The translations under genes were made by a program, and so were the position numbers. Of a stretch of 458 nucleotides of DNA, positions 1-458 are shown piece after piece. Within the stretch, counting starts at the first letter, position 1. Each line of letters opens with the position of its first letter. Source of the DNA: Escherichia coli (GTDB taxonomy: Bacteria > Pseudomonadota > Gammaproteobacteria > Enterobacterales > Enterobacteriaceae); assembly GCF_003334255.1 (NCBI RefSeq), contig NZ_QOWU01000237.1; one strand, 5' to 3'. The notes beneath the pieces were generated by a model. That model was given only the letters and a program-made list of their open reading frames with translations. It did not search any database and was not told the origin of the DNA.

Positions 1-16
1 AATTTGAGAGACTCAC

Positions 17-34
17 GAACAACTTTCGTTGTTC
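17..34 (-). other. Perfect 7-bp hairpin with GNRA (GAAA) tetraloop in the 23S 5' flank
   Basis: Seen in sequence: 17-23 gaacaac and 28-34 gttgttc are perfect inverted repeats around tttc. In transcript sense this is GAACAAC-GAAA-GUUGUUC. It is not followed by a U-tract, so it is not an intrinsic terminator. Inference: a structural element of the pre-23S leader near the region that pairs with the 23S 3' flank for RNase III processing. Confidence 0.5.
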
Positions 35-62
35 AGTGTTTCAATTTTCAGCTTGATCCAGA

Positions 63-75
63 TTTTTAAAGAGCA
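63..75 (-). promoter_or_regulatory. Spacer boxA antitermination element (Nus-factor binding motif)
   Basis: Seen in sequence: reverse complement of 63-75 is TGCTCTTTAAAAA, one mismatch from the rrn leader boxA consensus TGCTCTTTAACAA. It lies immediately downstream (in transcript sense) of a boxB-like hairpin. Established knowledge: rrn operons carry a second boxB-boxA pair in the 16S-23S spacer that supports processive antitermination through 23S. Confidence 0.7.
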
Positions 76-76
76 A

Positions 77-114
77 ATATCTCAAACATCACCCGAAGAT
101 GAGTTTTGAGATAT
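77..114 (-). promoter_or_regulatory. boxB-like RNA hairpin preceding spacer boxA
   Basis: Seen in sequence: 77-86 (atatctcaaa) is perfectly complementary to 105-114 (tttgagatat). In transcript sense the inner part is CAUC-UUCG-GGUG, giving a C(UUCG)G tetraloop with a short bulge. Its position 2 nt upstream of boxA in the transcript matches the boxB-boxA arrangement. Confidence 0.6.
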
Positions 115-148
115 TAAGGCAGGTGACTTTCACTCACAAACCAGCAAG

Positions 149-224
149 TGGCGTCCCCTAGGGGATTCGAACCCCTGTTACCGCCGTGAAAGGGCGGTGT
201 CCTGGGCCTCTAGACGAAGGGGAC
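149..224 (-). tRNA. gltT/gltU/gltV/gltW: tRNA-Glu, anticodon UUC, 76 nt, CCA encoded
   Basis: Seen in sequence: reverse complement of 149-224 is GTCCCCTTCGTCTAGAGGCCCAGGACACCGCCCTTTCACGGCGGTAACAGGGGTTCGAATCCCCTAGGGGACGCCA. It folds as a cloverleaf by hand: acceptor stem GUCCCCU/AGGGGAC, anticodon stem CCGCC/GGCGG with loop CUUUCAC (anticodon UUC = plus-strand gaa at 188-190), T-arm with GGTTCGAATCC, discriminator G, terminal CCA (plus-strand tgg at 149-151). Established knowledge: matches the E. coli tRNA-Glu carried in rrnB/C/E/G spacers. The specific copy cannot be determined from the window; if the source is E. coli K-12 in reference orientation, a minus-strand Glu-type operon would be rrnG (gltW), but that is inference only. 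Confidence 0.95.
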
Positions 225-263
225 ACGAAAATTGCTTATCACGCGTTGCGTGATATTTTCGTG
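224..263 (-). other. Extended imperfect hairpin abutting the tRNA-Glu 5' end
   Basis: Seen in sequence: outer stem 224-231 (cacgaaaa) pairs with 256-263 (ttttcgtg); inner stem 237-244 (tatcacgc) pairs with 248-255 (gcgtgata); 3-nt loop gtt at 245-247; asymmetric internal loop at 232-236. Position 224 is also nucleotide +1 of the tRNA, so the 3' strand of the hairpin in transcript sense runs directly into the tRNA. Confidence 0.5.
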
Positions 264-395
264 TAGGGTGAGCTTTCATTAATAGAAAGCGAACGGCCTT
301 ATTCTCTTCAGCCTCACTCCCAACGCGTAAACGCCTTGCTTTTCACTTTCTATCAGACAATCTGTGTGAGCACTGCAAAGAACGCTTCTTTAAGG
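225..395 (-). other. Internal transcribed spacer, proximal part (between 16S 3' end and tRNA-Glu)
   Basis: Seen in sequence: lies between the 16S 3' terminus and the tRNA on the same strand. From memory it matches the E. coli Glu-type spacer (transcript sense begins CCTTAAAGAAGCGTTCTTTGCAGTGCTCACACAGATTGTCTGATAGAAAGTGAAAAGCAAGGCG...). Boundaries follow from the two flanking RNA genes. Confidence 0.85.
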
Positions 396-458
396 TAAGG
401 AGGTGATCCAACCGCAGGTTCCCCTACGGTTACCTTGTTACGACTTCACCCCAGTCAT
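396..458 (-). rRNA. rrs: 16S ribosomal RNA, 3'-terminal 63 nt (partial; gene continues beyond the window end)
   Basis: Seen in sequence: plus strand 396-458 is taaggaggtgatccaaccgcaggttcccctacggttaccttgttacgacttcaccccagtcat. Its reverse complement ends ...GTAACAAGGTAACCGTAGGGGAACCTGCGGTTGGATCACCTCCTTA, the conserved 16S 3' terminus. It contains the anti-Shine-Dalgarno CCUCC (plus-strand ggagg at 399-403). Established knowledge: this terminus is nearly invariant in Enterobacteriaceae. Mature 3' end placed at 396. Confidence 0.95.

Follow-up and report, generated by a model that had tools for sequence, protein, structure and literature searches.

A compensatorily conserved hairpin ends at the 5' boundary of tRNA-Glu in an optional spacer block of Escherichia coli rrnB

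The stretch of DNA analysed here, 458 nucleotides that we refer to as the window, is the reverse complement of part of the E. coli rrnB operon. Read in the direction of the transcript, from position 458 to position 1 on the minus strand, it runs from the 3' end of the 16S rRNA gene through a spacer to tRNA-Glu (gltT) and on into the spacer that leads towards 23S rRNA. The window is 100% identical to an E. coli chromosome at an operon that lies downstream of btuB-murI in the RefSeq annotation, which identifies the operon as rrnB and the tRNA as gltT. As tRNA-Glu lies at 224..149 (ARAGORN, Rfam), G224 is nucleotide +1 of the tRNA. The 16S-tRNA-Glu spacer is 171 nt long (395..225), and the hairpin that is the subject of this work is found inside it (Table 1). 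The tRNA-Glu genes of E. coli are stated to be located in rrn operons only (PMC4696680).

A scan of the whole window with cmscan against Rfam 15 (E<=1) returned StyR-44, SSU rRNA, tRNA and matches at chance level only, leaving 225-330 uncovered. On the 23S side of the tRNA, the boxB-like hairpin is followed by a boxA, UGCUCUUUAAAAA, at 75-63 (-), and we take the two to be the spacer antitermination module. No boxA (consensus UGCUCUUUAA(C/A)AA) occurs within 223-264, so the hairpin next to the tRNA is not an element of the rrn boxB-boxA kind. A promoter inside the spacer was also considered and rejected: the published riRNA promoter lies inside 16S, and a pattern scan found no promoter-like site on either strand of the window.

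Table 1. Features of the window, numbered along the 458-nt stretch; the transcript is read from the minus strand
Feature	Position	Strand	Basis and remarks
16S rRNA 3' end	458..396	-	Rfam
106-nt optional spacer block (long form), the hairpin being its tRNA-proximal end	225..330	-	Replaced by a 20-nt block in short spacers
P1	321-313/272-265	-	RNAalifold, covarying
P2, variable	within 265-330	-	RNAalifold
P3	290-285/277-272	-	RNAalifold, covarying
Conserved 'AC', can pair with tRNA G+1 (224) and U+2 (223)	263..264	-	Competes with the first two acceptor-stem pairs
Lower stem, 5' strand, ACGAAAAU	255..262	-	Pairs with 232-225 in the MFE structure of hairpin, spacer and window; covarying columns
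Upper stem, 5' strand, AUCACGC	248..254	-	Pairs with 244-238 in the MFE structure
Triloop, AAC	245..247	-	MFE fold
Upper stem, 3' strand, GCGUGAU	238..244	-	MFE fold; repeat finder; per-sequence check
5-nt bulge on the 3' side, AAGCA	233..237	-	Unpaired in the MFE structure
Lower stem, 3' strand, AUUUUCGU, pre-tRNA-Glu leader -8 to -1	225..232	-	Ends one base before tRNA +1
tRNA-Glu(UUC), gltT of rrnB	224..149	-	ARAGORN; Rfam tRNA, 60.1 bits at 224..152
Trailer segment UUGCU, candidate (tentative) partner of the bulge	143..147	-	MFE structure of leader, tRNA and trailer
boxB-like hairpin, 16 bp, arms 76-91/100-115	76-115	-	Inverted-repeat search
StyR-44 (RF01830)	71..1	-	Rfam, 81.5 bits; strong match cut by the window end

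Folded with RNAfold, 263..224 of the minus strand forms a hairpin of 8 + 8 bp, closed by a loop of 3 nt and interrupted on the 3' side by a 5-nt bulge. Its minimum free energy is -14.9 kcal/mol, compared with -5.4 +/- 2.2 kcal/mol for 200 dinucleotide shuffles (z = -4.37), one of which equals it. The arms were picked out independently by a repeat finder, with 223-232 and 255-264 complementary at 10 of 10 positions and 237-244 and 248-255 at 8 of 8. The original prediction, made from the letters of the window, was of a hairpin of about 40 nt in two 8-bp segments at 224-263 that shares the +1 nucleotide of the tRNA, and RNAfold, ARAGORN and Rfam together confirm it. Folding of the 16S-tRNA spacer had been named as a check, and the hairpin is retained both in the MFE structure of the whole 171-nt spacer and in that of the whole window. 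The C263-G224 pair extends the lower stem, and the complementarity reaches one pair beyond the earlier description, to A264-U223, so that G+1 and U+2 of the tRNA can both be captured by the hairpin. A pattern scan of the sense strand finds no intrinsic terminator; there the upper stem and the U run have the bulge between them, and the hairpin leads into the tRNA.

Glu-type spacers for comparison were taken from two sources. A genome-contig scan with a gapped pattern running from the 16S end to tRNA-Glu supplied Pantoea, Tatumella, three Providencia species, Cedecea, Limnobaculum and Avibacterium; it returned 13 loci only and missed E. coli itself, and is not a census. PLSDB, in which nine records had a matching tRNA context, supplied Serratia. 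The architecture seen in E. coli recurs in nine further sequences, which represent seven other genera and four other Enterobacterales families. In every Enterobacterales sequence a two-segment hairpin ends at -1, the 3' strand being the leader up to that position in 10 of 10, and a bulge or internal loop on the 3' side is likewise present in all ten. Eight other Enterobacterales hairpins gave shuffle z-scores of -2.3 to -4.8. Avibacterium (Pasteurellaceae) lacks the hairpin (z = +0.2), and the element is therefore not universal in Gammaproteobacteria.

In a plain MAFFT alignment of the ten sequences the lower helix is 96% paired, with changes on both sides in 6 of its 10 pairs, and none of 500 shuffles reached its covariation score. 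Sliding the partner strand by 1-3 columns in this alignment lowers the pairing from 87% to 24-48%. Given longer segments and no structure, RNAalifold recovers the lower helix together with the pairs to G+1 and U+2. The 'AC' that faces these two nucleotides makes an AU pair in 9 of 10 sequences and a CG pair in 9 of 10, and the two exceptions, G.U and U.G, still pair. The upper stems were misaligned both by MAFFT and by covariance-model realignment and were accordingly checked sequence by sequence; they are 4-8 bp long and fully complementary, and their sequence differs from that of E. coli in every genus except Cedecea, where one compensated pair is changed. An absence of compensatory changes in relatives had been set beforehand as the observation that would speak against the prediction; it is the reverse that was found, in the covarying pairs of the lower helix and in upper stems that are rewritten yet stay complementary. 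The hairpin is thus a real RNA fold, conserved by compensatory change across five Enterobacterales families. Chance as the origin of the fold is excluded by the shuffle z-scores and the covariation.

Two natural variants within E. coli were sampled, from strains 4314 and SOI121: C245U, which falls in the loop, and C227U, which turns the G260-C227 pair into G.U, so that it still pairs. The latter pair, 260-227, is A-U in Cedecea.

The kind of mismatch tolerated in the lower helix shows on which strand the fold operates. There are seven G.U cells in the alignment and no A.C cells, and the fold is therefore one of the sense RNA, not of the plus strand or of DNA. It can be imagined that the upper stem together with TTTTCGTGT constitutes an antisense terminator, or that the repeat is a palindrome for a protein or for recombination, and the pattern scan does mark 237-255 with the tail TTTTCGTGTA (237-264) on the plus strand, at one site found against 0.6 expected, which is not significant. 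We give such a plus-strand or DNA element next to no credence: the seven sense G.U pairs would become A.C mismatches there, with none of the reverse kind, and the terminator is not conserved, the antisense U tract not adjoining the upper stem in P. stuartii, Pantoea and Serratia.

The hairpin belongs to a part of the spacer that is optional. Long Glu-type spacers measure 171 nt and short ones 85 nt; the two are collinear as far as ...AAGGCGT, after which the long form has 106 nt (330..225) and the short form 20 nt (CTTGCGAAGCAGACTGATAC). In K-12 MG1655, rrnB and rrnG have the 171-nt spacer with the block, and rrnC and rrnE the 85-nt spacer without it. We take this exchange of 106 nt for 20 nt to be the polymorphism called rsl ('ribosomal spacer loop') in E. 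coli Glu-type spacers, which involves a 106-nt block and was reportedly described by Harvey, Hill, Squires and Squires in the Journal of Bacteriology in 1988 (170:1235). The features in common are these: the block lies between 16S and tRNA-Glu, is exchanged for one of about 20 nt in other operons, and is operon-specific and variable in presence between E. coli strains. The hairpin described here is the last 38 nt (225-262) of this rsl-type block.

Of 5,426 complete E. coli genomes, 2,791 carry the 106-nt block, at 4,008 places in all, with a median of one copy and a range of 1-7 copies in carriers, and in 2,775 genomes it is at least 99% identical. The short junction is found at 17,602 places in 5,369 of these genomes. 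About 18.5% of E. coli Glu-type spacers therefore have the hairpin and about 81% do not, and 2,635 of the 5,426 genomes (49%) have no copy at all. The number of long-form copies per genome thus ranges from 0 to 7, and 57 genomes are without any short-form junction; this variation between long and short copies suggests frequent gene conversion between rrn operons. A metagenome scan with the 5' half of tRNA-Glu returned mostly soil contigs in which tRNA-Glu lies outside rrn, and the five matches in an rrn context were all of the short form; a metagenome scan with the gapped 16S-tRNA-Glu pattern gave no match. In the E. coli-like, Klebsiella and Salmonella spacers obtained from the metagenome scan and PLSDB, the spacer is 85 nt, the tRNA begins 86 nt after the CCUCCUU of 16S, and the hairpin is absent.

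This distribution bears directly on function. The original prediction held that the hairpin could position or modulate the cleavage by RNase P or RNase E that releases the 5' end of the tRNA. Since the hairpin is absent from most Glu-type operons and from half of the strains, it is not required for release of tRNA-Glu or for positioning either enzyme: the same ~81% of E. coli spacers do without the block, as do rrnC and rrnE of K-12 and those spacers of Klebsiella and Salmonella that were examined. The hairpin is dispensable for tRNA-Glu maturation and can only fine-tune release. A site for RNase E or RNase III within the hairpin was not found in the lists of known rrn sites or in the form of a site detected by RNA-seq. 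Of the proposed processing role, the structure therefore stands and the positioning, as stated, is not supported; that the hairpin helps to position RNase P is unlikely, and any modulation of cleavage would be expected to be inhibitory or delaying.

Most likely, on the analysis given below, the hairpin would do one of two things: delay 5' cleavage or merely package the extra spacer RNA. The reading that we prefer, a possible one to which we hold tentatively, is that it acts as a natural leader-sequestering hairpin which forms first and would delay or gate RNase P in the operons that carry it, while keeping the insert compact. It is suggested by the position of the fold with respect to the tRNA, in which 232-225 correspond to leader nucleotides -8 to -1 and 224 to tRNA +1, with the same arrangement in the nine other sequences. 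Synthetic 'sequestor' hairpins, in which the leader as far as -1 forms the 3' strand, block E. coli RNase P in vitro as well as in vivo (Ender et al. 2021, PMC7897497), and cleavage is restored once the base of such a hairpin opens, the upper hairpin that is left over being no obstacle (PMC7897497). The natural hairpin resembles these sequestor riboswitches in that the leader, all the way to the cleavage site, makes up its 3' strand. It differs from them in that the sequestors are designed, are controlled by a ligand and have continuous stems of 11-15 bp before supF (PMC7897497), whereas the natural hairpin, known here from its sequence, has no known ligand and an 8-bp A/U-rich base that is set off by a bulge.

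According to this reading, the hairpin would be transcribed and folded before the tRNA emerges, and its A/U-rich lower stem would hold leader nucleotides -1 to -8, and potentially G+1 and U+2, in a helix. The stretch so sequestered would be the part of the leader that has to be single-stranded for RNase P and its C5 protein, so that the cut at 224/225 could be made only while the lower stem breathes or is displaced. Displacement might be brought about by completion of the acceptor stem and possibly by pairing of the 3' trailer with the bulge, and the 5-nt bulge would uncouple the weak lower stem from the stable upper stem. An energy evaluation gives -44.1 kcal/mol for the hairpin together with the full cloverleaf and -43.5 kcal/mol for the hairpin extended over G1 and U2; the gap is 0.6 kcal/mol, and the two conformers can therefore exchange. 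A calculation of leader accessibility was noisy and does not separate long and short leaders cleanly, the short form of Klebsiella also being poorly accessible.

We infer an effect on RNase P kinetics from this geometry, and two considerations weigh against it. A mere slowing of maturation accounts poorly for compensatory conservation across five families, and an 8-bp A/U-rich stem may open too readily to matter kinetically. In addition, three pairs midway along the lower stem keep their A-U orientation, being AU in 9-10 of the 10 sequences, which points to a sequence constraint that the leader-sequestering model leaves unexplained.

The remainder of the block, 265-330 (-), also folds into hairpins that show compensatory changes across genera in RNAalifold and that have no match in Rfam. 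The whole 106-nt block is accordingly a chain of stem-loops that covary (P1, P2, P3 and the hairpin), a finding that is in keeping with pure packaging or insulation of the roughly 86 nt of extra spacer RNA, with no specific effect on RNase P. Local folding would then avert mispairing with the 16S processing stem or the tRNA, loading of Rho, or premature attack. The optional nature of the block fits such a role, as does the freedom of the upper-stem sequences to vary provided that pairing is kept. What packaging leaves unexplained is that the 3' strand always ends at -1, that the 'AC' facing G+1 and U+2 is kept, with only wobble-compatible changes, and that the bulge on the 3' side is conserved; we consider pure packaging rather unlikely.

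Two further relationships within the spacer concern the block and its surroundings. A direct repeat on the minus strand links 232-242 with 336-346 (GUGAUAAGCAA / GUGAAAAGCAA); one copy lies in the conserved core of the spacer and the other in the hairpin, in the 3' strand of the upper stem and the bulge. The repeat may hint at the origin of the long form, or at two alternative partners for the trailer. An 8-nt complementarity between 241-248 and 321-328 derives from a shared palindromic ACGCGT, has no counterpart in Cedecea or Tatumella on inspection, and was treated as chance.

A stem with an asymmetric bulge resembles the single-cut RNase III sites of the phage T7 R1.1 type, and with its two stacked 8-bp helices and 3'-side bulge the hairpin might on that account be a secondary site for RNase III, or for another nuclease specific for double-stranded RNA, that shortens the leader before RNase P acts. 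RNase III processing stems are recognised by about two turns of near-continuous double-stranded RNA and a mapped rnc-dependent cut, a combination that the hairpin, with only 16-18 bp interrupted by a 5-nt bulge, does not offer. None of the seven known rrn sites lies 5' of gltT (PMC6212723), and the site detected by RNA-seq in the rrsB-gltT interval, at 4168221, is 21 nt past 16S and about 110 nt upstream of the hairpin. A role as an RNase III site is on these grounds highly improbable.

RNase III is known to cut about 33 nt past 16S, and 3' exonucleases need a single-stranded tail on which to start. The hairpin could therefore be viewed as protecting the 3' end of a spacer RNA of about 138 nt that is cut out of the precursor, either a metastable by-product or a trans-acting RNA. 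Cleavage by RNase P would leave U225 base-paired at the 3' terminus of this fragment, and the block forms a compact domain of several hairpins that is conserved across families. There is also precedent in StyR-44 and StyR-215, which are excised rrn spacer RNAs that are detectable as discrete species and conserved in enterobacteria (Chinni et al. 2010, PMC2943607). Like them, the block is a structured piece of rrn spacer, and StyR-44 lies in the same window, at 1-71. However, StyR-44 and StyR-215 lie upstream of 23S and 16S in all seven operons, whereas the hairpin block lies between 16S and tRNA-Glu, in some operons only, and has no Rfam family. We found no report of the fragment; the Salmonella Typhi screen that yielded StyR-44 and StyR-215 lists none from the 16S-tRNA-Glu interval (PMC2943607), and half of the E. 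coli genomes have no such block. An excised fragment with a protective end is, in our view, decidedly improbable. Another comparison is with Ile-tRF-5X, which derives from the spacer tRNA-Ile of rrn operons. It extends over the first 13 nt of mature tRNA-Ile and is described as forming a stable hairpin (PMC9514646). Both it and the hairpin are tied to a tRNA gene in the 16S-23S spacer, and they differ in operon type and in tRNA; Ile-tRF-5X is moreover a fragment that accumulates, at levels reported to depend on RNase E and to be independent of RNase P (PMC9514646).

Returning to the leader-sequestering hairpin, a candidate for what might open it lies on the other side of the tRNA. The bulge together with A232 (AGCAA, 236-232) is the complement of UUGCU (147-143), the stretch of 3' trailer that comes straight after CCA, and when the trailer is included in the fold, the MFE structure exchanges the lower stem for the bulge-trailer helix in E. 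coli, Cedecea, Tatumella, P. rettgeri and Serratia. The bulge-trailer helix and the lower stem cross, and would have to alternate or form a pseudoknot. Leader-trailer helices in the same register but of different sequence are present in Providencia (GUGCAAU/AUUGCGC, 7 bp), Serratia (AUCGGA/UCCGAU) and Avibacterium (9 bp), and their length is 6-9 bp in Tatumella, Serratia and Avibacterium. When compared by RNAduplex with shuffled trailers, P. alcalifaciens, Serratia and Avibacterium stand out (0.002-0.03) and the other Providencia are weaker (0.07-0.08), and the E. coli bulge-trailer helix is no better than shuffled trailers (0.53). The pairing is accordingly put forward as a tentative lead from modelled folds.

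The long-form block might be a so far unrecognised structured RNA domain with a role of its own, which could take one of two forms and which we regard as quite improbable. In the first, the block would be a co-transcriptional gate: the hairpin would sequester -1 to -8, pairing of the trailer with the bulge (AGCAA/UUGCU) would open it later, and RNase P would cut only once the whole tRNA and trailer had been made. In the second, an RNA of about 138 nt would be freed by RNase III and RNase P, would be protected by its flush 3' hairpin and would act in trans. In both cases the delivery of tRNA-Glu, or of a by-product, would differ between operons that have the block and operons that do not, which would provide a function for heterogeneity among rrn operons.

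The kinds of element involved, namely the sequence block, the spacer helices and leader structures, are already known. What appears, in the literature consulted, to be uncatalogued is the compensatory maintenance of the hairpin across five families, its RNase P-sequestor geometry, and the fact that it rides on an operon-variable block; a conserved structure so far outside Rfam is now documented. If the hairpin gates RNase P, engineered RNase P riboswitch platforms would have a natural counterpart in it, and rrnB and rrnG would mature the same tRNA with different kinetics from rrnC and rrnE; such gating would then be a concrete instance of rrn operons that differ in function. If there is no gating, the hairpin would still be an example of selection that holds a dispensable spacer insert tightly folded.

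A separate observation concerns the other end of the tRNA gene. In the sequence designated 'plasmid 4' of Salmonella Senftenberg NCTC10384, tRNA-Glu is followed, right after its CCA, by an insert of 39 nt (479-517 of the locus) whose last part repeats the tRNA 3' end (AGGGGACGCCA). The insert has the look of a scar or target duplication left by an element for which the end of the tRNA served as attachment site.
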